Of a DNA stretch of 64,000 bases, positions 35,401 through 57,411 are shown piece by piece. Both the position numbers and the translations under genes were made by a program. How positions within the stretch are numbered: the first letter of the stretch is position 1; each line of letters begins with the position of its first letter. Origin of the DNA: Candidatus Micrarchaeia archaeon (lineage in GTDB: Archaea > Micrarchaeota > Micrarchaeia > Burarchaeales > Fermentimicrarchaeaceae). The DNA is taken from contig JAVZHX010000002.1 of assembly GCA_038871515.1 (NCBI GenBank), positions 141,815 to 205,814 on the forward strand. The letters are read 5' to 3'. The notes under the pieces were generated by a model. That model saw only the letters and a program-made list of their open reading frames with translations, was not told the DNA's origin and did no database searches.

Positions 35401-38400
35401 TTTGCTTTCATTATCATTTTCAGGTGGGATGTCAATTCTTCTGCTTGCGTTGAATCCATGAATTGCGAGCAGGGTTGGGCCGCTTATCTTAACTGGTTTG
35501 ATAAGGAGGGATGAGGGGAACGGAGCGTAAGGTTCACCAAGGAGCGGGTACCTAGTGGGTGAGTCTATATATTCATCATACCCGGTTTGCGATACAACTG
35601 TATTTGGCGGTATAGACTTTTTGAACCAAGCGCGCGTGTTGTGGCACATACTGCTATTCCTTCCAAAAATATCCTCAAAGCATATTCCATTATCAGTTGA
35701 GAGGTTTGCGGGCATTATGAAGAGGGATGCTTCCTCAGGTGCTCCTGTTATGGATATTGCGTGGATTATGTAGCAGTAACCAAATGGAGTGTAGCTTGAA
35801 TTTGTTACTGTTATTGAGTAAGTTACATTAACCCTTGCGCTTGTCTCGCACAGTATTGAAACAAGCAAGGAGGAGACGTTTGTTATTGCTTGGTAGTAAT
35901 AATCTGAAGCACCATCAGGTGGTGGATCCTGTGGAGCGAATGGCAGTGGGTTTGGCTCCTTGTGCACTGGACTGAACACATATGCAAAAGGATAGCTCCA
36001 GTTCATTGTGTTATTGAATGGAATTGTTTTGTTTTTTACCACACCACCTTCAACTACAGTTAAAACGTACGGGTTTTTGTTAGGATCGTTTCCAAACATG
36101 TTCGTAGTTGGATACTCAAAAATATAGAGTGGATTTTGGTGCCCGTACTGATCAACAGTTGGTGTTGTTGAGATGTATTGATAACCGTAATACTGATTCT
36201 GCATTATGTTGAATGTTTTTCTGTAGCTTGCGTTAAGTATCCACTGGTGGTCATCTGGCGGAGCCATGTAGTTGCTTACTCTGTCCATCATAACGAAATG
36301 CTTGTAGAAGAATCTGTTTGTAAGGTAGTTGTAAGCAAGATAAGGAAGGGTGCTTGGTGTTTTCTTTGGTGGGGTTAGGTAGGCTGGCCTTGTGAGAGAG
36401 AAGTGGGAGCCGCCTCCCTCAACAAGCCTCTCAAGGTGGTTGCTGTAGCTAGTTATATTGAGCTGTTTGTTTATCACGGAGGTGCCGGAGAGGGAGCCTC
36501 CGCTTGGGCAGCCGTTGGAGTATTTTCTTATTGTAAACGTGTAATCAAACCTCAGGAACGCAGTGATGTTTGTTGCAAGGAAGTTTCTTCTGTAAATAGG
36601 GCTGAGCGGGGCGGAGAGCTTAACCACTGGACTTCCTGGAGCAATACTCCCAGAAGTGAGTAATCCCTCTATGTTGGAGTATTCTGTTGTTTTTGTTTTC
36701 TCAACCTCTCCCTCGCATACGGAGGGCTCAACTGCTCCTTCCTGAGAGCAACCCTCGCATGAAACTCCTGCCATCATTGACTCCTTTATTAAATCCGGAT
36801 ACCCTATTACATCATCTGGGTGGTCAACCGCTGGTGACTCCACCATTGAGCCAGAATAAACAAAGGAGTATGAGCCACCTGGGAAATTATAGCTTTGGTC
36901 TTGAATTCCTGGTTGGAATTTGTACTTGACTACCATGTTGCGTTCTCCTTTCAATGCAATGTATACGTTAAACTTGTTGTCAACATCTATTCCATGGGTT
37001 TCGGATGATTTACCTTGCACATACTGCAAGCCTGCTGAGAGTAGGCCCCATGGGTCGTACCATGCTTTCCAGAGAGTAACGTATTCTTTTGGCTCAATCA
37101 CAACTTTCGCTCTGTACTGCTTCCCAGGAGTTTCAATTGTGTCAAATGCAAGAATTCTAGTCATCTCATATTCTTGCGTGTCGTACCAAAGGCATGCATT
37201 GCAGTTATTTGGATCGGGGCACCAGAGGCATCCCCCATCCTGAGTGCAGCCAGTGCCTGGGTTTCTGTAACAACCAATTTTAAATCCGAATATATCTAAA
37301 CAGCCCGGCATACAGCAACCCAAACACTCCATTGGGAAGCCACTACAGCCAAAGTAACCAGTTCTAACTGGAAATGCCATATAGTCGATCACAAACAAGT
37401 AACCCTTTCTGTATTTAATCCCCCTCAGATAGTGATACCCTCCTTCCTCACCCCAAAAGCTCTGAGTTTCATTTACATTATCAACATATGTTTTAGTTCC
37501 TGCTTCATTTGTGCATGGCGGATCTAAAATAACTCCTAGTGGGTTCAGCTCTTGTAATTCAATTCCACCATCACCCCCAAAGATGCTGATTTTAGAAACT
37601 TCCTGGGCTGGGTTGGATGCGTTGTACTGATGTATAAACGGATAACCAACCCAGAAGCACCCCCACCACTCGCAGTGGCGTTTCTTATCCCTCACTACAA
37701 ACAGACTTGCACCATCCTCGGTAACCGCTATATCTCGCGCTGTTCCCTCCCAGGCTTCTGTGCAGTTGTTGCTTGCATTCAGCTTGAACTCCTTATCGTA
37801 TTTGTTTATGCAGATGTGGTTGAATACTGTATCGGGGTAGGTGTTGCCAAGCACGTACAAATTGCCCCAGCTATCCGTGTCTAAACCATACGGGAAGAAG
37901 TACTGGCCATCCTCAGTAATTGTATCAATTTCAGTTACAAAGTGAATTGTTGGTGGGTAACTTCTAACTATTTTCACAACTTGCACTTTGGGTGAGTTAG
38001 TTAATGCAATGAATATATTGCCTCTGTTATCATACGCAATTGCCTGTGCATTCGAATCAATTAGGGGTGTGGCGCCAGGTATTGGCTTGCCGTTTATCAA
38101 CCCATTATAATCCTCCAGCCATGAGGAGGGTACCCTTAAAGTGAACTTTCCAAGCCTCCCTCCATCTTTGTGGTCAACAACAAGCAGTGCTTCTGGGGAG
38201 CGCAACTCGTGTGGGTTGAGAATTGAATCGTTTGTTATGTTGTATGGCTCAAGCGCAGTTAAAGGAAGAGTTACTGTTATGTTGAAGTAATCAGTATATA
38301 CATTTCCTGGTGCGAACTGAACGTCATATCTATCACTGCCAACGCACACGCTTGATGTTCCGCTGAATGGGTAGTAACCCCAACCCCAGAGGACTTCTGG

Positions 38401-44369: not shown

Positions 44370-44669
44370 CTATCCCTTCAGAACAACCTCCTGAATCTTC
44401 TTATCATCCAACCCCACTTTCTTCGCATCTGCTTTTGAGAAAATTGTTATGAGGGTTGTCTTCTCCACCCCAATATCCTCAAGAAAGTTTGAAATCTGAG
44501 TTCTGCTTGCCCCAAACCTCTCAAGCGTGATAACAAATGTGACAACATCCATTCGCTTATTTCTCTTGTCAAACATGCTCATAACTTCCTCAAGGTGGGC
44601 ATCGCTTAAACCAAATAGCTTCAGCCGCTTTCTCAGCTCGCTTTTATCAAACGTGTATGCCTTCGCCAT
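44370..44669 (-). CDS. small protein paralogous to the C-terminal domain of the adjacent ATPase
   Basis: YTFDKSELRKRLKLFGLSDAHLEEVMSMFDKRNKRMDVVTFVITLERFGASRTQISNFLEDIGVEKTTLITIFSKAD aligns colinearly with the last about 85 aa of the upstream ATPase (YSFEKNELKNKLTEFGMDDIKASELINIFSKGNKHMDILEFVKFLDKNDLARSNITSFLKVIGMEDAMIIDIFNRID). Confidence 0.5.
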   Translation of the reverse strand: MAKAYTFDKSELRKRLKLFGLSDAHLEEVMSMFDKRNKRMDVVTFVITLERFGASRTQISNFLEDIGVEKTTLITIFSKADAKKVGLDDKKIQEVVLKG

Positions 44670-47600
44670 CTACCCACCGGAATCTATTCTGTTGAATATA
44701 TCAATTATCATCGCATCCTCCATACCAATCACTTTAAGAAAAGAGGTTATATTTGATCTGGCCAAATCGTTTTTATCAAGAAACTTCACAAACTCAAGTA
44801 TATCCATATGTTTATTTCCTTTGCTGAAAATGTTTATCAATTCAGAAGCTTTTATGTCATCCATTCCAAACTCAGTTAACTTATTCTTCAGCTCATTCTT
44901 CTCAAATGAGTAATTCTTTGGAATTGTTTCATCCGCAAGCTGCGCCTGAGTTAGGATTGATTCAACGTCAAGGAAGTATTCCTCAAGAGGCTCCTCTCCA
45001 TGAACTCTCTCAAGCAGAAAAGTTTCAGGGAACTTTGTGCTTGTCTGGAATGCCATGTTAACCGCGCACTGCCCAACTCCAAACTTGCTTATCTCCTCCC
45101 TCATGTAATCACTGAAGTTCAACGAACCCTGTATGTAATCTAAGAATTTCTGGAATTTCACTCTGAGGATGAAGTTTGTTCCAACGTTTGAGAAGATTGC
45201 TTCGTGTATGTCTGTTGGGTTCTGCGAGGCGACTATGAGACCGAAGTTGTATTTTCTACCCTCTCTCACAATCATGATTGCATCAGACCTTTCATCCTTC
45301 GCAATCTTCCACGCCTCATCAAGAACAACAAGCACTCTCAAACCCTTTGTTGCAGCCCATCCGGCAGCCCTCATTTTTTCTTTTAGGAATTGGAGGATGA
45401 ACAAGCCGGCAAGCCCTCTCATTACCTCGTCAGGCAAACCGCTCATATCAACGTCAACCAGCCCAACTTCAGTAAGCTCCTCAAGCTTCACAGTGCTCTG
45501 CTGCGCGAAGTAATCCTCACCTGGCCTGCAGAAGTTTCTTAATCTGTAGATTGCATTCTCAAGCTCCGCAGGAAACTCATATGTTCCTGATTTAAGCTTA
45601 TCTTCAAGTATTTTCACAACATCTTTTAAAGTTGGTGGGGTGAGTGGTTTACCATCTGCTCCTTTCTGCTCAACTTCATTCAATTTGAAACCAGCTTCCT
45701 TATACGTTTCCTCAAGCGCTTCCTCGGTAAGCCTCTTCTGCTCCGGGTATTGCCCAATATCTGTAAGTATCTCCAACGTTCGTATAATTTGCTTAACCCT
45801 GTCAAGTGGTTTCATTCCTCCCAAATCCATTAAATTGATGAAATCCCCTTTTCCCAGTGCAATTATCCTTCCTCCTGCCTGCTTAACCCATGCCCTGTAT
45901 TCGCCTGCCCAGTCAATTATTATCGCGTTGCTCCCCCAAACGAAAGCAGCGCGTGAGAGGAAAGTTTTGACGAAGTAGGAGTTATGCACAAATACTCCGC
46001 CAAAGCCTGCAAGGAAAACTTCCTCATCAACCTCCAAATCATAAACGTAAGGTGAGTTGCTGTTTATTTTCTCTATGTTGCTTATTCTATCCCAAACTAT
46101 ATCCGAGTTGGAAAGTAGTTTCAGAAATTCAACATCATCCCAAATTGTTGGCTCAGATTCATCTAATGAAAGTTGATGGGATAACTGCGGTGCGTAACCT
46201 GCAAAATTGCTTTCAACCTCATTGAGCATACCCGCGAGGTATTCTCTTGAAGGAGTTCTGAGCCCAGCAGCTATTGAATAAGTCATCTGAGTTCGTCTTA
46301 ACACTCCGTTTTTGACAAGTCTATTCACTACTGAGCCTATCTCTGGGATGAGGTCAACATTGCTGTGTGCTTTTGTTTTTGCAAGCAGTTTCGCAAGCTT
46401 TTCGTTTTTTGTTTTAAATGCAAAACCTATCTCCGCAAATTTCTCCAAGTTTTTCTTTCCAGAAATGGTAATTCTGTAGTAATAAGAGCCTGAATGGGAT
46501 GAGTTGGTGGCACGTTTCCAATGAGAGTGAACACGGGCATTCACTCCAAATTTTAGGAGTAGGTAGAGTAGATCATTGGCGAGTTCCCTGGATTTTGTGG
46601 TTGCGCAGACAGCGTGATGCTCCACGCTTCCATCTCCTTCGAAATAACCTCTTAGATACTCGGATATAATTTTTCTTGAGCAGGAGAATATGAAGGAGGG
46701 AACTGCTCTCTCCCCAGATTTTTTGTGCAGCAGAAGAGATTTGATGAGCTGTATGAATGGCTCTGAAGCAATTCTTACTCCTTTTCTAACTCTAAAGGAA
46801 CTGCTTCCAACAGAACTAGCACACCTCTCTACTTCTGCAAGAAATTCCTTGTTGCAGTTGCTCACATGGATGAAGTCCTTTGCTGTGTTTCCCTCAGCAG
46901 TTATGAAGCCAAGCAACCTTGCCAGTTCTGGCGTTATTGGGAGTATTGCTGGCAAGTTTATTCTTCCGTTGCGTGCCCGTATTCTAAGTTTTTTCATCTC
47001 CTCCTTCTCCAGCGGGGAGGTTCTGAGCAGCTTTCTGAAGTAGCGAAGCGGAACTGCTCTCCCATGCTTGTAGAAGCGTATGTATTTATCATACTGCTCG
47101 TCTATTGGTAGGTTGGATTCTATTTTCTCCCAACTAAATCTCACAAAGTTCAACCCCGTTACATACAGCTTGCTTTCACCAAGCAAATCCAGGAGGTTTA
47201 GCTCATCAAGGTTTGAATTGGAGTTTATTGAACGAGGTGTTGGGACGAAATCGCCTGGCTGAACTTCACTGCTTTTCACGACTCTGATGTATCCATCCCT
47301 GAAAACAACTATATTGTGATCGCCAGTTGTCTTAACCTCCCTCCCACTGCTTGTTGTGAATTTATACATCTGCTCGGGAGCTTCCTTCCTGGCAGCAGTG
47401 ACAACCCTGCTCCATTTTGCTTTTAGTGTGCTGTCAAAAGTATAAACTTCAACATTTGGGTTTCTCACGCAGGTGCAACCATCAATTTCCTCCGCCCCCT
47501 CTTGCTCAATCAATGAGTCCACAAGCTCCCCTATTCTGACAAGCTTTTCATTTCCATCAACTCTCACCAGAACTTTTTCATCTGGTGATATCGACTTGCC

Positions 47601-47813
47601 CGCGCCGGTTATCCCAACTATGCAGATATGTGGGTTTGTTAAATACTGATAGGACCAGTTAAAAGGAACGTGAAATATTTTTGTTTTTCCAATGTAGATT
47701 GAGTTGGATGGGTCAAGCGCGATGAACTCTGCTGGCGGTTCAGGAGGCCTTACAAACAACGGCCTCTTTGCAAGCTCCTTGCTCATTATGGATTGAACGC
47801 GTATTTTTCCCAT
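44670..47813 (-). CDS. VirB4/TraC/CedB-like P-loop ATPase interrupted by an intein
   Basis: Extein: Walker A CIVGITGAGK|S split by the intein. After splicing SYFVKTFLSRAAFVWGSNAIIIDWAGEYRAWVKQAGGRII (cf. iDpkGEY...gG motif of VirB4/TraG ATPases). Walker B LRVLVVLDEAWKI (DEAW is the VirB4-type Walker B). Confidence 0.75.
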   Translation of the reverse strand: MGKIRVQSIMSKELAKRPLFVRPPEPPAEFIALDPSNSIYIGKTKIFHVPFNWSYQYLTNPHICIVGITGAGKSISPDEKVLVRVDGNEKLVRIGELVDSLIEQEGAEEIDGCTCVRNPNVEVYTFDSTLKAKWSRVVTAARKEAPEQMYKFTTSSGREVKTTGDHNIVVFRDGYIRVVKSSEVQPGDFVPTPRSINSNSNLDELNLLDLLGESKLYVTGLNFVRFSWEKIESNLPIDEQYDKYIRFYKHGRAVPLRYFRKLLRTSPLEKEEMKKLRIRARNGRINLPAILPITPELARLLGFITAEGNTAKDFIHVSNCNKEFLAEVERCASSVGSSSFRVRKGVRIASEPFIQLIKSLLLHKKSGERAVPSFIFSCSRKIISEYLRGYFEGDGSVEHHAVCATTKSRELANDLLYLLLKFGVNARVHSHWKRATNSSHSGSYYYRITISGKKNLEKFAEIGFAFKTKNEKLAKLLAKTKAHSNVDLIPEIGSVVNRLVKNGVLRRTQMTYSIAAGLRTPSREYLAGMLNEVESNFAGYAPQLSHQLSLDESEPTIWDDVEFLKLLSNSDIVWDRISNIEKINSNSPYVYDLEVDEEVFLAGFGGVFVHNSYFVKTFLSRAAFVWGSNAIIIDWAGEYRAWVKQAGGRIIALGKGDFINLMDLGGMKPLDRVKQIIRTLEILTDIGQYPEQKRLTEEALEETYKEAGFKLNEVEQKGADGKPLTPPTLKDVVKILEDKLKSGTYEFPAELENAIYRLRNFCRPGEDYFAQQSTVKLEELTEVGLVDVDMSGLPDEVMRGLAGLFILQFLKEKMRAAGWAATKGLRVLVVLDEAWKIAKDERSDAIMIVREGRKYNFGLIVASQNPTDIHEAIFSNVGTNFILRVKFQKFLDYIQGSLNFSDYMREEISKFGVGQCAVNMAFQTSTKFPETFLLERVHGEEPLEEYFLDVESILTQAQLADETIPKNYSFEKNELKNKLTEFGMDDIKASELINIFSKGNKHMDILEFVKFLDKNDLARSNITSFLKVIGMEDAMIIDIFNRIDSGG
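45981..47594 (-). other. intein (about 538 aa) with LAGLIDADG homing-endonuclease domain inserted in the ATPase P-loop
   Basis: Block A S-ISPDEKVLVRVDGNEKLVRIGELVD right after GAGK. Block B VKTTGDHNIVV (TxxH). Two LAGLIDADG-type motifs LLGFITAEGNT and YLRGYFEGDGSV. Blocks F/G VYDLEVDEEVFLAGFGGVFVHN followed by +1 Ser that completes the Walker A (GAGK-S). Confidence 0.7.
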
Positions 47814-47822
47814 AAATATAAA

Positions 47823-48662
47823 TTATATTGCTCCCTTTAAATCTTTAGGTGTTGGCGGGAATGCAACCTCCCATTCAAAGCATCTTTTCATATCCTCTCC
47901 TGTGAGAGTTGTTATCTCTATATTCAGCGTGTTTGAGAAGTTCGCTTTGAGTTCATTTGCCTGTGCTTTTACAGTTGCTATTGCAGCTTCTGGGCTTACA
48001 CCAAGCGCGGTGGTTGTTATGTACATAATTGTTCCCATAGGCTTCTCTCCGGATGATAATCTGGCGAGCATCTCGTTCTGCCTTGCAACTTCCCTCTCCC
48101 ATTTGTCTATCATTATTGGGTCAGGGCGCGGTTTCTCCCTCTCCCTCCCGAGCCTCAGCTGTGCTGCAGCTCTTTTTGTTTCAATATCCTCCCTGAATTT
48201 AAGAATGTCTTCTATGTATGTCATTATGCAAAACTTAAATGGGAATTTTATGCTTGCAACTGCCCTCTCCCATAGATCCATATAGGAAGCCTGCTCCTCC
48301 TGAACGCCAACAGCTGCGGATTCATAGAACCTGGCGTAGAGGAACATTGTTGCGTAATACAAACCACCAACGTTTTTTATAATCACATCCTGCGAAGGAG
48401 GTATTTCAAACCCACCTGCACGTATTTCGGTTACCTTTAAAATTTTTGTTATTAACGGTAGAACCATAAAGCCAACTTTGTAGATTAAAACATCCAGCAC
48501 TGCGAAGAATATGCTGGCAAGCACTGCGATAATTCTGAAATCGCCTAAACCAGGTGAGGTTAAGCCAATCATCAAACATAGGAAGCAGATTCCGAGCGCT
48601 AGAGCTGTGAAAGTCTTTTCGTTCATTCCTATTGGGATTCCTCCAACTGGCATTTCAATCAC
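47823..48662 (-). CDS. membrane protein, family B (2 TM + soluble domain), paralog 1
   Basis: Two N-terminal TM helices then conserved domain (MFLYARFYES...MDLWERAV...TGEDMKRCFEWEV). Clear paralog of the next gene. Confidence 0.5.
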   Translation of the reverse strand: MIEMPVGGIPIGMNEKTFTALALGICFLCLMIGLTSPGLGDFRIIAVLASIFFAVLDVLIYKVGFMVLPLITKILKVTEIRAGGFEIPPSQDVIIKNVGGLYYATMFLYARFYESAAVGVQEEQASYMDLWERAVASIKFPFKFCIMTYIEDILKFREDIETKRAAAQLRLGREREKPRPDPIMIDKWEREVARQNEMLARLSSGEKPMGTIMYITTTALGVSPEAAIATVKAQANELKANFSNTLNIEITTLTGEDMKRCFEWEVAFPPTPKDLKGAI

Positions 48663-49630
48663 ACCGATGGAGCTTCCTCCCTTATTAGGGGTGGCGCCAC
48701 ATACTCAACCTCAAAACATCTCTTCATATCCTCTCCAGTAAGAACTGCAACCTCGGCGTTTAGCGTTGTTGCAATTGTTGATTTTATCTCGTTTGCCTGG
48801 TTCTTCACAGTTGCAAGTGCCATTTCTGGTGTAGGGCCGGAAGCAGTTGTCATAACATACGTCATCTGCGCGATTGGGTTTTCCCCTGTTGATAGTTTTG
48901 AGAGCAAGTTATCCCACATCGCAACTTCTCTCTCAAGCGTTTCAATTTTCTGCTTATCTTCCTGGGGCTTTCCTCTCTCATCTGCAAGCTTCAGCTGAGC
49001 CTCTGCTTTTTTGTTCTCAACTATCGCTCTGTATTTTGATAAATCCTTAACATAGGAGATTAAAACGAATTTTGTAACCAGCTTCATGCTTGAAACTGCT
49101 CTCTCCCAAAGCTCCATAAAAGCAAACTTCTCCTCCTCACTTTTCTCTGTTGTTGATTCGTATATTTTAACTTGCAGAAACATGGATGCATAATACGTGT
49201 TGCCAATTTTTTTGATAACTGCGTCCTGTGTTGGTGTTATCTCATATGGCTCCTCAATTACATCTATCACCCTAACCTTTTTTGTTAAGAGAGGAACAAT
49301 CCAGTAACCATATTTGAATGTTATAAGCCCAACTGTTGATAGGGCAGCTGCAAGCGCTACAACAATTGGGGTGAGCCCACCGAATAAAGCACCACCTACA
49401 AATACTAGCACTACTAATGCTCCTGAAACGGCAAAGCAGATTAGTGCGATGTTTCTCTCAGCTGGCATAACACCACTTACAGAAGCCTTACTATTCCCTG
49501 CCCTATCTCGGTTATGTCTGCACCGAGTAATGGGGAGATTGTTCTTATAAATGTGAATGTCACAATGAGAACGAGCATTGGGTAATAGAATATTTTTAAC
49601 CAGACAGAGGATAACCAGCCCAGTATCCAT
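48659..49630 (-). CDS. membrane protein, family B, paralog 2
   Basis: Shares MFLQVKIYES...MELWERAV...TGEDMKRCFEVEY with the previous gene. Probable start at MPAERN (about 49468) directly after the upstream stop. Confidence 0.5.
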   Translation of the reverse strand: MDTGLVILCLVKNILLPNARSHCDIHIYKNNLPITRCRHNRDRAGNSKASVSGVMPAERNIALICFAVSGALVVLVFVGGALFGGLTPIVVALAAALSTVGLITFKYGYWIVPLLTKKVRVIDVIEEPYEITPTQDAVIKKIGNTYYASMFLQVKIYESTTEKSEEEKFAFMELWERAVSSMKLVTKFVLISYVKDLSKYRAIVENKKAEAQLKLADERGKPQEDKQKIETLEREVAMWDNLLSKLSTGENPIAQMTYVMTTASGPTPEMALATVKNQANEIKSTIATTLNAEVAVLTGEDMKRCFEVEYVAPPLIREEAPSV

Positions 49631-50481
49631 GCAGAAGCAGCTCTCAGCTGGGGTGAGAGAGCTCTTTCGGTTGCAACATCAGATGCGCTTTCAAAATCGC
49701 TTTTGCATGCGCCAAACTCATCAAGATTGAACCCACCAATGCTGTTTCCAAGTTCATTTGCTTTATTTCTAACTTCAGATGGGTTTTCTGACATCATGGC
49801 AACAAACGTGAACATAATTGGATAGACGATTGACAACCCTATTCCAATTGCAATGAGCAAACCACCTGCACCTCTTGTCCATGGGAATATTCTCAATAAT
49901 ACTCCTGCGGGTATGAAAACTGTGAAGCCGGTGTTGTAGAAAAGGTGTATGAGAGCTCTCTGAAAAGCTGTGAGGATGGCTGCCATAGTCACAACATACG
50001 CTTGGAAGTGGAAGTGCTCGCTTACTGGTGATAGAATTAGCTCGAAGGGAGAGAAGTCTAACCCAGCTGCATTGAAGTAAAATGTGAATGTTGTGAGAAA
50101 CTCTATGATGAAGTTTATTCTGTAAACGTTGATATATATTGAATAAAGCGAGCTCATAACCCCGTCTAAGTAAACATATGCTTTTTTGTACGGGTTCATC
50201 CCACCGATCATTGTCTGAAATCCTTCGTTCAGCATGACATCCATCATAAAGATTAAACCACCAACAATCACTGCGCTTGCCAGCGCTTGATAAAATTCTG
50301 ATTTTGCCCATTTTCTCAATCCATCCAAATTCAGGGCAATGCCAAGCATATAAGCTAATGCGACAACAAGGAAAGCGGTTACAACTGCAGTTAATGCAAC
50401 TGGCTGCCAAACATTCCAAACTCCTTCAACTGCAACTGGAGTTGCACCCCAGGGTTCCGTCCACCAAATTATCTGCATCAT
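49477..50481 (-). CDS. polytopic membrane protein, family A paralog (334 aa)
   Basis: N-terminal LAYMLG...WAKSEFYQALASA motif. Core LLRIFPWTRGAGGLLIAIGIGLSIVYP. C-terminal GADITEIGQGIVRLL. Confidence 0.55.
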   Translation of the reverse strand: MMQIIWWTEPWGATPVAVEGVWNVWQPVALTAVVTAFLVVALAYMLGIALNLDGLRKWAKSEFYQALASAVIVGGLIFMMDVMLNEGFQTMIGGMNPYKKAYVYLDGVMSSLYSIYINVYRINFIIEFLTTFTFYFNAAGLDFSPFELILSPVSEHFHFQAYVVTMAAILTAFQRALIHLFYNTGFTVFIPAGVLLRIFPWTRGAGGLLIAIGIGLSIVYPIMFTFVAMMSENPSEVRNKANELGNSIGGFNLDEFGACKSDFESASDVATERALSPQLRAASAWILGWLSSVWLKIFYYPMLVLIVTFTFIRTISPLLGADITEIGQGIVRLL

Positions 50482-50489
50482 TTTTTCAC

Positions 50490-51521
50490 CTATATCAATC
50501 TTGTGAGGTTGCTCACATCTACCTCCTCACCCAACGCATACGAAAGTCCTTTCACAAAAGATATTAAGATCATGAACATAACAAGTGGCATAAAGATTGC
50601 ACCAACAATTGTTTTTCCTATGAAGCCAACGAAGAACTCGGAAAGGGGATTACCTGTGAACCAGCTTGGGTCGGTTGGACTGAGACCTGATTCCTTGAAT
50701 GAGTCTGACATACCTTCATAGCTCATCTGCACATCTCCGAGCACTGCGCCGTAGAAGAGAACTGCAAGAAGAGGGTAAAAGAAAAAGAAGCCAATTGCTA
50801 ATGCTATCAAACCTCCTCCAAACCCTCTTGTTGCACCAAAAGATCTTAGAAGAACACCTATTGGGAAGAGGATGACGAATAAGCTTTCCATCATTTTCAG
50901 CAGAACCATCTGGGTTAGCACCATTATTGCTGATGTCATGAGAACAATCATTGCCATGGTGAGGCTGCTTGATATGTCGCTGAAAACCGCCAGCGGGCTG
51001 ATCATCACGCCGACTCCTCCAGGTGCTTTTCCAATCGTCATTGTTGCAACGGACGACATAACTGCATTCAACCCAGCTACTGTCACGTAGCCAGTCATTA
51101 TTGTTGAGTAGAAGTCACTCAAATAACCGAATGCAACGTTTATCATGTTGCAGTTATCCCCTGTACAGCCCGTGTCTATCCCCAAAGTGTTCAAATCAAG
51201 CGAGCAGAGGAAGGAAACAAACCCAATTACAAAAATAGTTATTGCCATAGCGAGTATTGCCTCCTCCATCTGCTCCTTTGCCCACAGCGTAACTTTTCGG
51301 TGAACAAGCACGTGCCCCAACGTATAAACAAACGCTGCAACTAGGAAAACAGTTGAGGCAGCAAGGATGGATAAACTCTGCCAATTCCCCCAGTAGGTTT
51401 CGAACTCGGAGCTCACTGCTCCTGAACTGCATGCTGGCTTTACTGTTAATGTCCCTCCAGTAGCGGTACAGCCAAACCACATCAGCGAGAGCAGTAACAA
51501 ACCAATTATGTATTTTTTCAT
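50490..51521 (-). CDS. polytopic membrane protein, family A paralog (343 aa) with signal peptide
   Basis: WAKEQMEEA, LLRSFGATRGFGGGLIALAIGFFFFYP, C-terminal EEVDVSNLTRLI. Confidence 0.55.
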   Translation of the reverse strand: MKKYIIGLLLLSLMWFGCTATGGTLTVKPACSSGAVSSEFETYWGNWQSLSILAASTVFLVAAFVYTLGHVLVHRKVTLWAKEQMEEAILAMAITIFVIGFVSFLCSLDLNTLGIDTGCTGDNCNMINVAFGYLSDFYSTIMTGYVTVAGLNAVMSSVATMTIGKAPGGVGVMISPLAVFSDISSSLTMAMIVLMTSAIMVLTQMVLLKMMESLFVILFPIGVLLRSFGATRGFGGGLIALAIGFFFFYPLLAVLFYGAVLGDVQMSYEGMSDSFKESGLSPTDPSWFTGNPLSEFFVGFIGKTIVGAIFMPLVMFMILISFVKGLSYALGEEVDVSNLTRLI

Positions 51522-52450
51522 ATCAACCCACTCAGTCCACCTAAATCTATTTCGGCACCGAATATTTTTGCAAGCTCATTTATCAACACCAATGTGACTA
51601 TGAGGTTGAACATTGGCATGAATATAACAAATATGAATAAATAAAGAATTGCTGGATAGGCAACAAACTTTATAAGAGAGAGGAACATATTCCCACCAAA
51701 GTCAGGTGTGTTTGTTGTGCAGCTCATAGGATCATCACGACAGCTGCTTCCCAACCCAAGCGCATTGGCGAAGTTACGAGCACCTCCGACAAGTGCCAAT
51801 GGTTTTATTGTTTCGTCGTATATTGCCTTGTCAAACACCCAGAGGAAGGGATAGAAAATGTAGAAACCAAGGAAAACTGCTATGATTGCGCCTCCTGCAG
51901 GTCTGCTGAATGGAAATGCTCTGAGTGCTATTCCTATTGGAAGGAGGATTTGGAACTGTGTTTTTATGAATGTGAGAAAGGAACCCTGGCCGAGCAGAAG
52001 CCCAATCCCACCGAGCACTGCTTCCATTCCAAGCGACAGCATTGAGGTGACTGGAGCCAAACCAACAAATGGGTTTATGTTGAAACCTGTTTGAGTGGGC
52101 ATTGCTTTGAAGACAAGACTCTGTAGCATCCCAAAAAATGCATCCATCTCAACAATTGCAATGAAGAAACTCATCATCGAAGTGGTGAGCATGCTTATGT
52201 AATTTGATACAATTCCAAATGGATCCGCTCCATATAGACTTACCATAGTAGCGTCAATTGTTGATATAAAGGAGAGAAGCAGAACTGCAAGCAAACCACT
52301 GGCTATTGCTTGGTAAAGCTCATCCTTTGCCCAAGCCTGAAGCTTTGGCAGATGGAAGCCCATCCCAACCATATAAGCAAGCGCAACAAAACCAAACATC
52401 AGTGAGATAACCGCAAAGGTTATTCCATACCATTCAGCCCAGCTTACCAT
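51518..52450 (-). CDS. polytopic membrane protein, family A paralog (310 aa)
   Basis: WAKDELYQAIASG, ALRAFPFSRPAGGAIIAVFLGFYIFYP, C-terminal GAEIDLGGLSGLI. Confidence 0.55.
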   Translation of the reverse strand: MVSWAEWYGITFAVISLMFGFVALAYMVGMGFHLPKLQAWAKDELYQAIASGLLAVLLLSFISTIDATMVSLYGADPFGIVSNYISMLTTSMMSFFIAIVEMDAFFGMLQSLVFKAMPTQTGFNINPFVGLAPVTSMLSLGMEAVLGGIGLLLGQGSFLTFIKTQFQILLPIGIALRAFPFSRPAGGAIIAVFLGFYIFYPFLWVFDKAIYDETIKPLALVGGARNFANALGLGSSCRDDPMSCTTNTPDFGGNMFLSLIKFVAYPAILYLFIFVIFMPMFNLIVTLVLINELAKIFGAEIDLGGLSGLI

Positions 52451-52458
52451 TTTTTCAC

Positions 52459-53634
52459 CTACAATATTCTTGTAAGACCGGCAATTTCAACATCTCCTCC
52501 AAGCTGCGGGGAGAGAACTTTGATGAACGAAATTGTGACAAGAATTATAAGCAGTGGCAGGAATGTGCCTGGCACCATGAGGTAACCTACTGTTGGGAGA
52601 ACGCCATTGTAAGGAGTCATCATCCCCGCGTATACGTCTGAGCCGTATCCGCCACACAAATGTTTGCTCTCTCCACTTTCAACGATTGTTGTGCAAGAGG
52701 AACCAGGGCAGTCTGCATTACTAACGCACCCATTTTTGAAAAGGAATGATGGATCCCAGTAGTTTGCAACTGCTTGAGGAAGCCCTGGGATTACGTAAAC
52801 TACTAAACCTGCTACTCCAGTGCAGAAGGGTCTGGTTCCATCTCCTTCAGGAAGAAAGTTGCCAGTGCAAGCCCACGTGTTTGGGTCGTTACCTGTGTAA
52901 TAGAAAGTGTGCGCATTGAAAGTGAAGTAGCTTTCAAGCATCACGTAAAGTAATGGGTAGATTGTGTAAAGAGCAAGCGCTATTGCTATAAGTAAACCGC
53001 CAACTCTCCTTGAGAAAAAGAAAGTTCTCAAGATGATACCCATCGCAAGCAAGCTTGGGAAGAGGGCTTGCTTTATGAAAGTTAACATGTACCACTGTGC
53101 TATGATGCTTGAGAGCATTGGAAGCAGAACTGAGAAAGTGTATTCAAGCGAGTCAAGCACCATACTTCCCCCTTTCCAAAGATACCATGAGAAACCGAAT
53201 GCGGTTCTGCATTGCCCTATGATGCACAAACCACCTTCTGGGCCAACAGTGAAATCATAGAATTTTCCCATATTTGTTATCATACCCACTCTTATACTCA
53301 AATTGAATATGTGCTCAACTTGCTTTGTTACATTTAGTTTCAGTTTGTTGAGTATTCCAATTGCAACATCAACATGGTCTTGCCCAGGAGTGCATTTTCC
53401 AGTAACAGTACAGGAGAAGTTGGCGATTGCAGTTACTATTATAATGGCTGCTCCAACAATAAATGCGCTTGCAAGTGCTTGGTAAAGCTCATCCTTTGCC
53501 CAAACTTCCAACCTGCGTATACCAAAAACGTGGGAGAGCGCATAGGCGAGAGCAGCAAAAAGAATGGAAAGCACTGCTGCAGCTACTGCAACTGACTGCC
53601 AACTGCTCCATAAAGTTGCAAATGCACTACTCAT
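52459..53634 (-). CDS. polytopic membrane protein, family A paralog (391 aa) with Cys-rich extracytoplasmic insert
   Basis: WAKDELYQALASA, ILRTFFFSRRVGGLLIAIALALYTIYP, insert NGCVSNADCPGSSCTTIVESGESKHLCGG, C-terminal GGDVEIAGLTRIL. Confidence 0.55.
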   Translation of the reverse strand: MSSAFATLWSSWQSVAVAAAVLSILFAALAYALSHVFGIRRLEVWAKDELYQALASAFIVGAAIIIVTAIANFSCTVTGKCTPGQDHVDVAIGILNKLKLNVTKQVEHIFNLSIRVGMITNMGKFYDFTVGPEGGLCIIGQCRTAFGFSWYLWKGGSMVLDSLEYTFSVLLPMLSSIIAQWYMLTFIKQALFPSLLAMGIILRTFFFSRRVGGLLIAIALALYTIYPLLYVMLESYFTFNAHTFYYTGNDPNTWACTGNFLPEGDGTRPFCTGVAGLVVYVIPGLPQAVANYWDPSFLFKNGCVSNADCPGSSCTTIVESGESKHLCGGYGSDVYAGMMTPYNGVLPTVGYLMVPGTFLPLLIILVTISFIKVLSPQLGGDVEIAGLTRIL

Positions 53635-55526
53635 TGAAATACCTCTTCAAAATTCTGGCTTAAAATCCTTGCTGCATTCTTTACGAACGTGAGAGTTATA
53701 ACTAAATTTAGAGTTGGGAGGAATACTGCTTGTGGGATGAGAAAAGCTGCCTCCTTCATAAGGTGGTACAATGCTATCAGTGCAAGCGGTATAAATGGTG
53801 AAACTACGCCCGTGAGGAAGGATGGGACAAACGCTTCAACAAGAGGTAGTGAAATTTGGGGTATCACGGTGTCAACAATCATCTTATTCATAACAAAACA
53901 GAGCGGATACACAATATACAAACCAAGCGCTAGAGCGATAAGCATTGCACCTGCTTTTCTTAGGAATGGAAATATTCTGAACAGAATCCCAAGCGGGAGC
54001 ATTATTCTGAAAGCAAATGCTTGTATAATTGATAAACCTATATCTTGAACCATAAGGCTTGCTGAAATGCCCGCAAAGAAAGAGTAGATGTAGTCAAAAC
54101 AAACTGCAACTGCTCTCAAACCTGCGTTTGGCATGAAACCAGTTCCAAGTCCTCCTGGCCCAACCATCATCTTATAACCCGCAACCATCTGGCAGATGAT
54201 GCTGTACTGGAAAGCAGTTGTTGCGAGGTTGAGTGTTTTATCCCATACCAAACCATTGAGGTAGGTATGGGCTATATTGAATGGGTCATCTCCTGCCAGA
54301 GTTATGAAAACATTGCAAATAACGCTGAGCACAAGTATTAACAGTATCATAATCGCAACAGAGATTATTATTTGGTAAAATTCGTCCTTCACCCAAACTT
54401 CCCACTCTTTCTTCACAAGTATTTTTGACACCATATACACAACTGCAAGCAAAAGCAGAATTGTTCCCAACCCCATAAACGCAAGGTAGATCCACCCCCC
54501 GCTCCACCACTCATCGCTGATGCAGCAGGGGGGGTAAGGTGGTGTTGGAGGGCATGCGATGCTTGTTGAAGGAGGGGCTGCCGGTGCAACAACCGTATAT
54601 GTAACAGAGACGCTTCTGACATTCCCCTGGCTGTCTGTTGCTGTCACTACCATTGTGTGGGTACCGACAGAGGTGGAGTAACCTGTATGAGAGACGGTTG
54701 GGTTCGGATCGCAGTTATCCGTTGCTGAGTAGGATGGGAGAGGCACCATACCTGCCATATATGTTGCACCATCTGTAGGGGAGAGTATAGTTATTGTTGG
54801 AGCCTGAGAGTCTTGGGATTGAATTTCAAGTTTATACGTCACTCCTGTTGGGTTCTGCGTGAGAGTTGGGTCGTCTGGTTCATCCAAATCATAATTTCTT
54901 ACCAGGATGTCCAGTTCATTCTGTCCGTCATGTATGAAATTTTTGACATCAAATGTGTAGATTGTTGTCCAGGGTTGGTCTCCGGGTCCCCAGGTGGCAA
55001 CTCCGGTTATTTCATCAACAGTCGCGACTAATGCACCGTTTATTCTTATCTGAAATGCATCATCTCCAGTTATTTTCAAAGTTGCAGATGTTACGGAGCA
55101 GACATCAAAACATTTCTTGAACTCCCTCCACGTATCTCTGTGGAAGTCAAGGGAGTTGTTGTATTCATATGATATCCAATGTATTGTTGGGTCGTTGTCG
55201 ATATGAGGCCTTGTTGCTTCGGTATCACAAGCGGCAACAACCGCATCCTTCCACGGAGTCCAAGTTGATGGGTCGGACACATTTTGATTGTCAAGCTCCT
55301 CAGCATGTCTCACTATATCTTTAGTATCACTTACCATCGCAGCTGAAGGAAGGCGCATATCCGCAACTCTACATGTTCCAACTCCACCACCACCGCCTCC
55401 TCCTCCACCACCGCCATTTGCAGCTATCCAGGAGAAAACAGGTGTTTGCATTAAAAGTAATACAAGAAGGCATTTCCAATAACTTACTCTGAATGCTCCC
55501 CCCAAGTATTTTTTTCTGAGTTTCAT
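53631..55526 (-). CDS. family A paralog (631 aa) fused to N-terminal secreted Ig-like module via Gly11 and Pro-rich linkers
   Basis: Signal peptide, GGGGGGGGGGG, Ig/HYR-like segment (DNCDPNPTVSHTGYSTSVGTHTMVVTATDSQGNV), Pro-rich APAAPPSTSIACPPTPPYPPCC, then WVKDEFYQIIISVA and ILFRIFPFLRKAGAMLIALALGLYIVYP core. Confidence 0.55.
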   Translation of the reverse strand: MKLRKKYLGGAFRVSYWKCLLVLLLMQTPVFSWIAANGGGGGGGGGGGVGTCRVADMRLPSAAMVSDTKDIVRHAEELDNQNVSDPSTWTPWKDAVVAACDTEATRPHIDNDPTIHWISYEYNNSLDFHRDTWREFKKCFDVCSVTSATLKITGDDAFQIRINGALVATVDEITGVATWGPGDQPWTTIYTFDVKNFIHDGQNELDILVRNYDLDEPDDPTLTQNPTGVTYKLEIQSQDSQAPTITILSPTDGATYMAGMVPLPSYSATDNCDPNPTVSHTGYSTSVGTHTMVVTATDSQGNVRSVSVTYTVVAPAAPPSTSIACPPTPPYPPCCISDEWWSGGWIYLAFMGLGTILLLLAVVYMVSKILVKKEWEVWVKDEFYQIIISVAIMILLILVLSVICNVFITLAGDDPFNIAHTYLNGLVWDKTLNLATTAFQYSIICQMVAGYKMMVGPGGLGTGFMPNAGLRAVAVCFDYIYSFFAGISASLMVQDIGLSIIQAFAFRIMLPLGILFRIFPFLRKAGAMLIALALGLYIVYPLCFVMNKMIVDTVIPQISLPLVEAFVPSFLTGVVSPFIPLALIALYHLMKEAAFLIPQAVFLPTLNLVITLTFVKNAARILSQNFEEVFQ

Positions 55527-56503
55527 ACCAATCTAGCCAGCCCAAACAAATCCGGATCCCCTCCAAGCGCACCTGCAAGGGAACGGATTGATGATAGAGT
55601 GATTATAACAACTATCACGAATAATGCTGAGATTATCACAAAGTTTTGCATGAGCGCAGTTATTAGATTGATTATAGAGGTAATATCCCAAGAGACAGCT
55701 CCAAAAGTTGCGTTTCCTGCGAAATCAAATACGTTGCCCGGGTCTCCCGGTGCAGTAACTGCTCTGTAGCCTAAGTAAACATTCCAGCTATAGATTATTG
55801 CAAGTGGGTATATAATGTAAGCACCAATTGCAATTGCAATTATTGTCCCACCAGCAACTCTTGTTGTTGGGAATGTTCTCATCAAAACTCCAAGAGGAAG
55901 GAAATACTTCAGCATTGTGTATCTGAAGAAATCAAGAAGCACCTGCTCTGCTAGAAGCACAGCAAGCATTGCGGATATAACATTGAAAACAGTGTTTATT
56001 CCAGTTGTCACTGGTCCAAGCCCAGCCCAAGGTGAAACAAACGAGCCGAAGCGAATGGTAACGATTGTTGGGAGAGGAGGCGGTAGAATTGGTATCGGGA
56101 TGAAAAAACTGAACATAAGAGTTGAAATGGCGCTTATTAGGAAGTTTGCAAGGAAAATTGAGAGCCATATGCTCATTGTCTCAAGCAGCATCATATCGAG
56201 AGCATTATGCGCCACCTCAAATGGGTTGCCTCCCGCCAGGTTTATTGAAATTCCAAAAAGAATGTTAACAAGTAGGATAAGAACACCGACAATCACTCCA
56301 CTTATGAATATCTCATACATCTCCGTCTTCGCCCACTCCTCAAGCTCCCTGTAGTGAAACCCAATTGCAACAGCATAAGCTAAACCAATTATTCCAAAAG
56401 AAACAGCCAATGCAGTTAAAGCAGTTGTCTCCCACCCACCTAGGAATATGCCACCGCTTAACTGTGCTTGAGTTATCTGAAGAATTGCCAAAGGGAGAGG
56501 CAT
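55523..56503 (-). CDS. polytopic membrane protein, family A paralog (326 aa)
   Basis: WAKTEMYEIFISG, VLMRTFPTTRVAGGTIIAIAIGAYIIYP, C-terminal GGDPDLFGLARLV. Confidence 0.55.
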   Translation of the reverse strand: MPLPLAILQITQAQLSGGIFLGGWETTALTALAVSFGIIGLAYAVAIGFHYRELEEWAKTEMYEIFISGVIVGVLILLVNILFGISINLAGGNPFEVAHNALDMMLLETMSIWLSIFLANFLISAISTLMFSFFIPIPILPPPLPTIVTIRFGSFVSPWAGLGPVTTGINTVFNVISAMLAVLLAEQVLLDFFRYTMLKYFLPLGVLMRTFPTTRVAGGTIIAIAIGAYIIYPLAIIYSWNVYLGYRAVTAPGDPGNVFDFAGNATFGAVSWDITSIINLITALMQNFVIISALFVIVVIITLSSIRSLAGALGGDPDLFGLARLV

Positions 56504-56567
56504 ATTATCTATTTTGTGATCTGGTTGTTTTTAAAACTAACTGAAAGTTGAAAAAAGAAAAAGGAGT

Positions 56568-56987
56568 TCAGCAGGGGGTATAAGCCATTGTTCCCCCAGA
56601 CATCCGTGTGAATATATCTACTAGAATTGGCGCTAGAACTGCAATGAATATACCTAAAATCCCTCCGACAAGGAGAGACATTGCCCAGCCCTGTGCCTTT
56701 GCTCTCATCTCAGCACCAAATACCTGGCCTGCTGCGTATGCCAACCCTGCGAACAGGAACATTATCAGCGCAAGCGTTGGCAGCACTGTATAAACCAGCA
56801 CTTGGAAGTCACATAGTGCTTTTCTTATGGTTGAAGCCATACCTGTGGTGCTTGTTGCCGAAACTAATGGTAGCAATAGAAGGAGGAGCACAATTGTTTT
56901 GTTTTTCATTCCAACCACCAATAATTTATGGAAAATAAAAAATAAAAAGGGAGATGGTCGTTTAGCAGGCTGCTTCTGCCATTTCAC
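56568..56987 (-). CDS. VirB2/TrbC-like pilin candidate (paralog 1)
   Basis: Probable start at MKNKTIVLLLLLLPLVSA (about 56909). Long signal peptide, helix 1 (VLVYTVLPTLALIMFLFAGLAYAAG), short charged loop (QVFGAEMRAKAQGW), helix 2 (AMSLLVGGILGIFIAVLAPILV). Two-helix hairpin topology of conjugative pilins. Confidence 0.5.
   Translation of the reverse strand: MKWQKQPAKRPSPFLFFIFHKLLVVGMKNKTIVLLLLLLPLVSATSTTGMASTIRKALCDFQVLVYTVLPTLALIMFLFAGLAYAAGQVFGAEMRAKAQGWAMSLLVGGILGIFIAVLAPILVDIFTRMSGGTMAYTPC
56661..56760. repeat. approximately 100-bp near-identical repeat, copy 1 (core of pilin paralog 1)
   Basis: ccctccgacaaggagagacattgcccagccctgtgcctttgc...gcctgctgcgtatgccaaccctgcgaacaggaac recurs at about 57054-57153 with only a few mismatches. 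Confidence 0.6.
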
Positions 56988-57312
56988 CCATTGACATGCT
57001 TATGAAGATGCCAACGAGCACTGGCGCAAGCACTGCAAGCACAATGCCGATTATCCCTCCGACAAGGAGAGACATTGCCCAGCCCTGTGCCTTTGCCTTT
57101 GTCTCAGCACCAAATGCCTGGCCTGCTGCGTATGCCAACCCTGCGAACAGGAACAGAATCAGGGATAGGGTTGGAAGCACTCCAGTCACTAGCACCTTGA
57201 AGTAGCATAGACCGGATGCTATTGCTGCTGCCATTGAACCAACTCTGGTTGCTGAAACCACTCCCATGGCTAACAAAGCCAGCAAAGTCGTGTACTTTGC
57301 TTTCATTTTCAA
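56962..57312 (-). CDS. VirB2/TrbC-like pilin candidate (paralog 2)
   Basis: MKMKAKYTTLLALLAMGVVSA signal peptide, FKVLVTGVLPTLSLILFLFAGLAYAAG, QAFGAETKAKAQGW loop, AMSLLVGGIIGIVLAVLAPVLV. First gene of the 31-kb minus-strand array. Confidence 0.5.
   Translation of the reverse strand: MKMKAKYTTLLALLAMGVVSATRVGSMAAAIASGLCYFKVLVTGVLPTLSLILFLFAGLAYAAGQAFGAETKAKAQGWAMSLLVGGIIGIVLAVLAPVLVGIFISMSMGEMAEAAC
57054..57153. repeat. approximately 100-bp near-identical repeat, copy 2 (core of pilin paralog 2)
   Basis: Same sequence as 56661-56760 (about 95% identity by eye). Flanks diverge. Confidence 0.6.
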
Positions 57313-57334: not shown

Positions 57335-57411
57335 TTAGAATATTATTTCATATGTTATATTTAAACCTTTCTATAAGTGTACTAGAACAGAAGGCGAATA
57401 CTTGCTAGAAA
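57335..57411. promoter_or_regulatory. divergent promoter region upstream of the pilin/secretion array and of the plus-strand small membrane gene
   Basis: AT-rich spacer with TATA-like tttaaatat on the minus strand about 35-45 nt upstream of the pilin start and GGAGG Shine-Dalgarno before the ATG at 57412. Confidence 0.25.

Follow-up and report, generated by a model that had tools for sequence, protein, structure and literature searches.

The 64,000-nucleotide (nt) stretch analysed here (the window; contig JAVZHX010000002.1 of assembly GCA_038871515.1) comes from the genome of a member of the Micrarchaeia (DPANN archaea) and contains, at positions 56568-57312, two small open reading frames (ORFs), both on the minus strand, which we call pilin genes A and B. 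We consider it likely that A and B are two old paralogs of the VirB2/TrbC type of conjugative pilin, encoded in a chromosomal operon, and that their core has been homogenised by gene conversion. The parts of this reading differ in strength. There is hardly any doubt that the tandem pair with its near-identical core is real, and it is highly probable that the two genes are old paralogs with gene conversion in the core, while we have good, though lesser, confidence that they encode VirB2-type pilin homologs within a type IV secretion system (T4SS)-like system.

In an ungapped comparison, genes A and B are 70% identical in DNA overall, and their proteins are 69% identical over 98 amino acids (aa). 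The best 103-nt stretch (57053-57155 in gene A) is identical at 98 positions (95%), with exact runs of 39, 14 and 44 nt, and outside this stretch the identity is 59%. Both the near-identical core of about 100 bp and the divergence of signal peptides and C-termini, which had been noted in the initial annotation, are thus confirmed. The core comprises 33 codons, FLFAGLAYAAGQ[A/V]FGAE[TK/MR]AKAQGWAMSLLVGG, of which 30 encode the same amino acid in A and B. None of these 30 codons carries a synonymous difference, and all five nucleotide differences of the core sit in the three replaced codons, whereas in the flanks 19 of the 34 same-amino-acid codons differ synonymously. Such a contrast indicates that the core identity goes beyond chance and protein constraint.

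Both proteins open with an n-region rich in Lys, then a hydrophobic h-region and V-S-A. Next come a polar stretch and a long hydrophobic helix, which a charged loop of 10 residues (FGAETKAKAQG in A, FGAEMRAKAQG in B) connects to a second hydrophobic helix, and the proteins end in a short tail with a terminal Cys. The Kyte-Doolittle profiles gave three hydrophobic segments per protein, namely the h-region of the signal, residues ~32-63 and residues ~73-105. An AlphaFold2 model of the gene A product, obtained from a 28-sequence alignment, shows a helix at residues 4-64, a turn at residues 65-66 and a helix at residues 67-105, with a mean predicted local distance difference test (pLDDT) score of 75 that rises to 82-89 in the helices around the core. 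Hydropathy, alignment and model therefore all bear out the signal, helix, charged loop, helix layout claimed earlier, and A and B show the complete layout of a VirB2/TrbC-type precursor, with a signal peptide, two hydrophobic helices, a short charged loop and a small mature protein. Cleavage of the signal peptide is predicted from its n-h-c layout and the V-S-A or V-F-A motif.

We then compared the two proteins and their relatives with known families. Pilin B matches the Pfam families T4SS_pilin (PF18895; 21.1 bits, 3e-4) and TrbC (PF04956; 21.0 bits, 4e-4), and pilin A matches T4SS_pilin with 14.9 bits (E=0.028). Among the 28 close family members, 20 match T4SS_pilin (best 5e-6) and 13 match TrbC (best 3e-6), and for orthologs with 77-94% identity PF18895 and/or PF04956 are given in precomputed annotations. 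When 1.84 billion representative proteins were searched with a profile, 522 matches were returned, a number that is not a family size since low-complexity false positives, among them a spider spidroin, are counted in it. Within a set of 123 small distant relatives drawn from these matches, T4SS_pilin is matched by 32 proteins (best 6.5e-9) and TrbC by 27 (best 1.3e-7), the next commonest Pfam family being matched by 4. When the profile of these 123 sequences was run against the PDB, the top match was the R388 pilin TrwL/VirB2 (8s6h) at a marginal E=0.075; phmmer and profile searches of the PDB with pilin B alone or with the close-family alignment gave nothing relevant. Aligned by hhalign with Agrobacterium tumefaciens VirB2, whose sequence was checked against 8cue/8exh, the family is in register (E=0.024, probability 2%), a result that is not significant alone. 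No NCBIfam match was obtained for the pilins or for the membrane proteins. Fold searches with the pilin model returned generic hairpins only; because the model runs the signal peptide into a single unbroken helix and a hairpin of two helices is not a discriminating fold, these searches are uninformative and bring no fold-level support to the pilin call. The family-level Pfam matches, the marginal top match to TrwL/VirB2 and the gene context, in which the pair is encoded with a VirB4-type ATPase and VirB6-type membrane proteins, together support the VirB2-like identity first proposed, and A and B are best explained as T4SS pilin precursors.

Two features of these proteins and their relatives deserve mention in their own right. 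First, a pair of Cys residues is conserved, one near the beginning of helix 1 and one at the very C-terminus (Cys34 and Cys114 in A, Cys33 and Cys113 in B). Exactly two Cys are present in 59 of the 123 relatives, and the divergent third-type paralogs L008_2, L009_3 and L010_2 have neither Cys of the pair. We can speculate that the pair forms a disulfide joining the exposed ends, functionally like the head-to-tail cyclisation of TrbC/TrhA. Second, the representative search yielded "polypilin" proteins in which several pilin-like hairpin modules, bracketed by Cys, are fused in one ORF. P0093 (1071 aa, 7 matched stretches) and P0095 (632 aa, 4 matched stretches; located on a 488-kb NCBI contig) each have a large, apparently extracellular N-terminal region, and P0099 (342 aa, 4 matched stretches) has nothing but hairpin repeats. 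The polypilins may be processed polyproteins, polytopic membrane proteins or gene-calling fusions.

The history of the pair was examined from its homologs. The 67 close homologs all come from Micrarchaeota or metagenomes, and the named ones are all Micrarchaeota except locus L009, titled "Candidatus ainarchaeum sp."; the gene B product is an exact match to protein QXF56_04375 of a metagenome-assembled genome of a Candidatus Micrarchaeia archaeon. We recovered 13 loci from reference genomes and 25 from metagenomes, including the complete genome of Ca. Fermentimicrarchaeum limneticum Sv326. In at least nine non-redundant Micrarchaeota genomes, two orthologous groups stand in tandem, A first and B second, distinguished by eight diagnostic residues, among them the loop positions A/V64, T/M69 and K/R70. 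The copy number varies, some genomes having three copies and more distant ones having one A/B-like gene and one of a divergent third type. Between orthologs, the core protein is 99% identical with a ratio of nonsynonymous to synonymous substitution rates (dN/dS) of 0.01, and the N-terminal end and the C-terminal tail share ~50% of their amino acids with a dN/dS of 0.24-0.42.

To compare silent sites within and between genomes, we measured the fraction of same-amino-acid codons that show a synonymous difference in the nine non-redundant genomes, using mis-pairings of A and B genes (derangements) as the null. At codons 52-63 (gene A numbering), this fraction is 0.17 for A against B within a genome and 0.37 between genomes, and at codons 71-84 it is 0.06 within and 0.23-0.25 between genomes; for both patches, 0 of ~7,300 mis-pairings reach the observed value. 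The loop between them (codons 64-70) gives no signal (0.39 within, 0.24-0.42 between; 2863/7286 mis-pairings), and neither do the flanks (0.46 within, 0.47-0.49 between; 3275/7355 mis-pairings). An earlier run with six genomes gave the same answer. Individual codons show the same pattern: GTC at codon 82 is found in both copies of the window alone, GGA at codon 75 in both copies of L004 alone and AAA at codon 72 in both copies of L015 alone, and codon 81 reads CTT in the two window copies and CTC in the two copies of L014, the closest relative. Old paralogs whose silent sites are more alike within than between genomes, the hallmark of concerted evolution, are thus found in codons 52-63 and 71-84 only. 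The gene conversion that the initial annotation had suggested as one option, and for which a comparison of strains had been proposed, is borne out by these data. The core identity is best read as having two causes, extreme purifying selection on the protein and recurrent short-tract gene conversion in two patches. Between the patches, seven codons retain the residues typical of each paralog (A/V, T/M, K/R), and this loop would be kept so either by selection or by the ends of the conversion tracts.

Four points weigh against the overall reading. Neither window protein reaches the Pfam gathering scores (26.6 for T4SS_pilin, 27.9 for TrbC); the operon ATPase also matches HerA-type helicases; no relaxase, clear coupling protein or VirB3/B8-like component was identified; and some of the shared silent states may go back to a small number of old conversions that several genomes inherited, which makes the number of independent events uncertain. 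The first two also speak for a rival explanation, in which A and B are no filament subunits at all and rather small integral membrane hairpin components of a HerA/FtsK-type transporter with no relation to pilus formation, or generic membrane proteins, an explanation with which the generic hairpins of the fold searches and some JGI annotations as "uncharacterized membrane protein" or "YacL" also agree. However, the two T4SS pilin families are by far the commonest across 150 relatives and TrwL is the top PDB profile match. Moreover, the cleavable-type signal, the position at the head of the operon, the terminator-like T-tracts of each gene and the VirB6-like neighbours fit the TedC/TedA pattern (PMC9905601). 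We consequently judge the non-filament explanation rather unlikely.

Concerning the core, the matching silent sites could in principle be produced with no conversion, by selection acting on the nucleotide sequence itself (through codon preference, mRNA structure or a regulatory site) in addition to protein constraint. The synonymous divergence (dS) between orthologs is indeed lower in the core (0.57-0.75) than in the flanks (0.9-1.7), which leaves room for extra constraint or for less saturation. Yet the silent sites of the core do vary between genomes while the two copies of each genome agree, to a degree that none of the mis-pairings equals, and a genome-specific codon usage would also affect the flanks. 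As the flanks show no signal, genome-wide codon preference is ruled out as the cause, and selection at the nucleotide level as a whole appears improbable.

The initial annotation had attributed the near-identical core to a recent duplication or to gene conversion, and the first of these did not hold. A core that is identical because the copies are young would agree with the tandem layout and with 95% identity over 103 nt, but the flanks of the same genes are only 59% identical, and A and B belong to two distinct orthogroups, the diagnostic residues of which are fixed across at least nine non-redundant genomes with A genes that are only 68-87% identical in DNA. Since both orthogroups have been kept in tandem across these genomes, the duplication is old, and a recent one is extremely unlikely. 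We noticed that the B-like pilins of L006, L020 and L024 carry A-type states at several diagnostic positions (pattern BAABABBA); these mosaic "x-type" pilins were not used as direct evidence of conversion, as early-branching lineages with ancestral states would fit equally well. Equally remote is the idea that A and B, as small secreted hydrophobic proteins of an archaeon, are archaeal type IV pilins processed by PibD/FlaK: their signal is predicted to be of the Sec type and not class III, with an n-h-c layout ending in V-S-A or V-F-A instead of a short charged leader before a conserved hydrophobic N-terminal helix, they have two hydrophobic helices and a charged loop, and the window proteins and 28 close members gave no type IV pilin or flagellin-type Pfam matches.

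The pilin genes form the head of a long minus-strand operon, the features of which are collected in Table 1. The likely starts are ATG 57306 for gene A and ATG 56909 for gene B, each preceded by a Shine-Dalgarno-like GGTGAT or GGTGGT as read from the sequence (GAGGTGAT 8 nt upstream of the ATG of A, TGGTGGTTGG ahead of that of B), and the alternative listed starts TTG 57312 and GTG 56987 are probably too long. The stops are TAA (56962-56964) for A and TGA (56568-56570) for B. The TATA-like TTTAAATA upstream of gene A is a putative archaeal promoter of the operon, and the oligo-T tracts 3' of both pilin genes, which are kept in L001-L005, are likely archaeal terminator or attenuator signals, judged by their sequence.

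Table 1. Features of the pilin pair and its operon (positions in the window)
Feature	Position	Strand	Details
Pilin gene A	56962-57306	minus	114-aa precursor; predicted signal peptide 1-19 (MKAKYTTLLALLAMGVVSA); predicted 95-aa mature helical hairpin; A-type orthogroup, loop AFGAETK
Gene A core	57055-57153	minus	codons 52-84, FLFAGLAYAAGQAFGAETKAKAQGWAMSLLVGG
Gene A conversion patches	57118-57153; 57055-57096	minus	codons 52-63; codons 71-84
Gene A paralog-specific loop segment	57097-57117	minus	
Pilin gene B	56568-56909	minus	113-aa precursor; predicted signal peptide 1-18 (MKNKTIVLLLLLLPLVSA); B-type orthogroup, loop VFGAEMR
Gene B core	56661-56759	minus	codons 51-83
Gene B conversion patches	56724-56759; 56661-56702	minus	
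Gene B paralog-specific loop segment	56703-56723	minus	VFGAEMR
TATA-like TTTAAATA	57359-57366	minus	~53 nt upstream of gene A start; read from sequence
Oligo-T tract TTTTTATTTTTTATTTT	56932-56948	minus	directly 3' of gene A; similar tract 3' of gene B (56551-56562)
VirB6-like polytopic membrane protein	55523-56503	minus	326 aa; first of six paralogs; 7 hydrophobic segments; no Pfam match
Five further VirB6-like paralogs	49477-55526	minus	631 aa (53631-55526), 391, 310, 343 and 334 aa; 5-8 hydrophobic segments each
Two adjacent paralogs	47823-49630	minus	323 and 279 aa; 43% identical, E=7e-70; conserved in operon; no family assignment
VirB4/HerA-superfamily ATPase	44670-47813	minus	1047 aa (509-aa extein); Pfam, VirB4 4ag5 and CedB matches
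LAGLIDADG intein	45981-47594	minus	538 aa; splits the ATPase within its Walker A P-loop (GITGAGK|S); Pfam intein and LAGLIDADG domains

In an all-against-all BLASTP comparison, mutual similarity (E 1e-6 to 1e-25) linked the 326-aa protein, the four proteins of 391, 310, 343 and 334 aa and the C-terminal half of the 631-aa protein, which consists of a surface domain and this VirB6-like half. A pilin-like N-terminal hairpin has been reported for CedA and VirB6 (PMC9905601); an hhalign comparison of the pilin and VirB6-like families (E=0.068) hints at such a hairpin here and proves nothing. Once spliced, the 509-aa extein of the ATPase scores above the gathering thresholds of Pfam AAA_10, DUF87 and P-loop_TraG, and it aligns over residues 59-332 with the VirB4 ATPase domain 4ag5 (E=2e-9). 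The best non-intein NCBIfam match of the ATPase is CedB (1.8e-14, 53 bits), far below the equivalog cut-off of 700. The ATPase orthologs of L002, L004, L005, L006, L009 and L010 have no intein and align contiguously across the junction with 80-90% identity, which confirms the splice boundaries.

Nine related loci share the gene order that runs from a conserved 244-aa membrane-protein gene through the two pilins to the array of membrane proteins, and most of them also keep an upstream aspartyl-tRNA synthetase (AspRS) and a PMT-type glycosyltransferase, and the ATPase follows the array wherever the locus DNA extends far enough. This conserved gene order indicates that the system is chromosomal and vertically inherited, and not a plasmid or an integrative or mobile element.

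Several other genes of the window were also recorded. A small ORF after the ATPase (44424-44669, minus) repeats its C-terminal ~80-aa domain with ~38% identity, and L004 and L006 show the same. Two giant proteins of 1787 and 2700 aa (27100-32463 and 32485-40587, both minus), which are encoded directly downstream of the operon, have no Pfam match; the 2700-aa protein carries a signal-like segment at its N-terminus and a membrane anchor at its C-terminus. They are reminiscent of the giant surface proteins encoded next to VirB4-like ATPases in Nanohaloarchaeota (PMC10266531). Finally, a second DUF87/HerA-type ATPase (24918-26147, plus) is 27% identical to the operon ATPase and has a weak match to the coupling protein TrwB, and a TnpB-like gene with a Cas12f1-like TNB domain lies at 22975-24027 (plus).

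If A and B are indeed VirB2/TrbC-type pilins, their precursors would be exported by Sec, the ~19-aa signal peptide would be removed by signal peptidase I, and the mature helical hairpin of ~95 aa would be placed in the membrane. From there, the pilin would be extracted and polymerised, probably with lipid, by the six VirB6-like proteins and the VirB4-like ATPase encoded downstream. Lipid head groups and the arginine of the loop form the lining of the lumen in solved conjugative pili (PMC9905601), and both termini of the H-pilin are surface-exposed (PMC13031515). By analogy, the basic loop between the helices would line the lumen with the N- and C-terminal ends outside; the converted codons 52-63 and 71-84, at the inner ends of the two helices beside the loop, are probably buried or face the lumen, and the divergent ends are presumably the exposed parts. 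Conversion would then keep both pilins compatible with one machine, or in one filament, while their outer surfaces differ. The earlier suggestion that recombination varies the exposed part of the pilus subunit finds no support, as conversion would homogenise inner, packing positions on this geometry and the ends that would be exposed show no concerted evolution. The analogy with Ced/Ted and with the T4SS of Patescibacteria suggests that the apparatus may serve in host-cell contact, or in the uptake or transfer of DNA or other molecules (PMC12102498, PMC12857230). More tentatively, and with more doubt than confidence, Micrarchaeota and some relatives (e.g., L009) might have fixed in their chromosomes a conjugation-type pilus machine as an organelle for host interaction or uptake, which would be an archaeal equivalent of the essential T4SS of Patescibacteria epibionts, with core-restricted conversion keeping the two pilins able to co-assemble as their outer surfaces diverge and so giving a heteropolymeric or switchable pilus.

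DPANN archaea lack most biosynthesis, and little is known of the physical connection to their hosts and of the way in which they take up host material. If the reading proposed here is true, the conserved pilus operon is a concrete, testable candidate for the connection between Micrarchaeota and their hosts, parallel to the T4SS essential for epibiotic growth in the Candidate Phyla Radiation (CPR), and the archaeal T4SS-derived systems are no longer confined to the crenarchaeal Ced and Ted. In addition, concerted evolution in patches offers a natural experiment on which parts of a pilin must match between subunits and which may vary. The ideas of pilin genes in tandem arrays, of VirB6 proliferation in symbionts and of conversion between copies of a pilin gene are all familiar; the novelty lies in finding them combined in a DPANN archaeon, with a sharply patchwise conversion that spares the paralog-specific loop. 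In a non-exhaustive set of the literature that included the archaeal section of a late-2025 T4SS review (PMC12857230), we found no such system in Micrarchaeota or other DPANN, and a Micrarchaeota cultivation paper (PMC8784108) does not mention the locus.

Among known systems, Ted (TedC/TedA/TedB, Thermoproteales) and Ced (CedA1/CedA/CedB, Sulfolobales; DNA import) are, as here, archaeal, chromosomal and domesticated T4SS-like sets (PMC9905601). They share with the Micrarchaeia locus a hairpin pilin, a VirB6-like gene directly downstream and a VirB4-like ATPase a few genes away, and a Sec-type signal peptide is present here and in TedC and absent in CedA1 (PMC9905601). The PDB profile searches with the close-family and 123-sequence profiles gave no match to CedA1 or TedC at E<=10. 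The locus is thus no Ced system, which has an unprocessed pilin without signal peptide, similar to CedA1, and a CedB equivalog; here a signal peptide is present and the CedB score is 53 bits against 700. Its likeness to Ted lies in architecture and gene order only, not in sequence. The locus differs from Ced and Ted in its two pilin paralogs, its six VirB6-like paralogs and the intein of its ATPase, and its host is a DPANN symbiont instead of a free-living crenarchaeon.

The bacterial conjugative pilins VirB2 (T-pilus), TrwL (R388), TrbC (RP4) and TraA (F) have, like A and B, a signal peptide, two hydrophobic helices and a short basic loop, and the mature size is similar, at ~95 aa here and 69 aa in the VirB2 (8exh) and TrwL (8s6h) PDB chains. 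A and B show no evidence of cyclisation and have the conserved Cys pair (Cys34 and the C-terminal Cys) instead, and their membrane would be archaeal and the envelope monoderm, unlike those of the bacterial hosts. The rvh T4SS of Rickettsiales, with its VirB6 proliferation, and the VirB2 paralogs of Anaplasma and Bartonella also combine obligate symbionts, tandem amplification of VirB6-like and VirB2-like genes and a chromosomal T4SS (PMC2653234, as cited in PMC12102498); they differ in being bacterial diderm systems with a full VirB8-11 scaffold, and homology would be at the superfamily level at most.

The T4SS of Patescibacteria (CPR) are also chromosomal, have no relaxase and occur in ultra-small host-dependent organisms (PMC12102498). 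Their VirB2-like genes match the same Pfam models (PF18895, PF04956), often lie near virB4 and form tandem arrays of 2-11, but array members average 25% identity (maximum 54%; PMC12102498), whereas the pair described here is 66-69% identical with a gene-converted core. They are bacterial, with a VirB4 in the MPF-FATA clade (PMC12102498), and the system described here is archaeal. Neither Ted nor the CPR T4SS is detectably similar to the Micrarchaeia system in sequence beyond the Pfam superfamily, and in organisation these two appear to be its nearest analogues.

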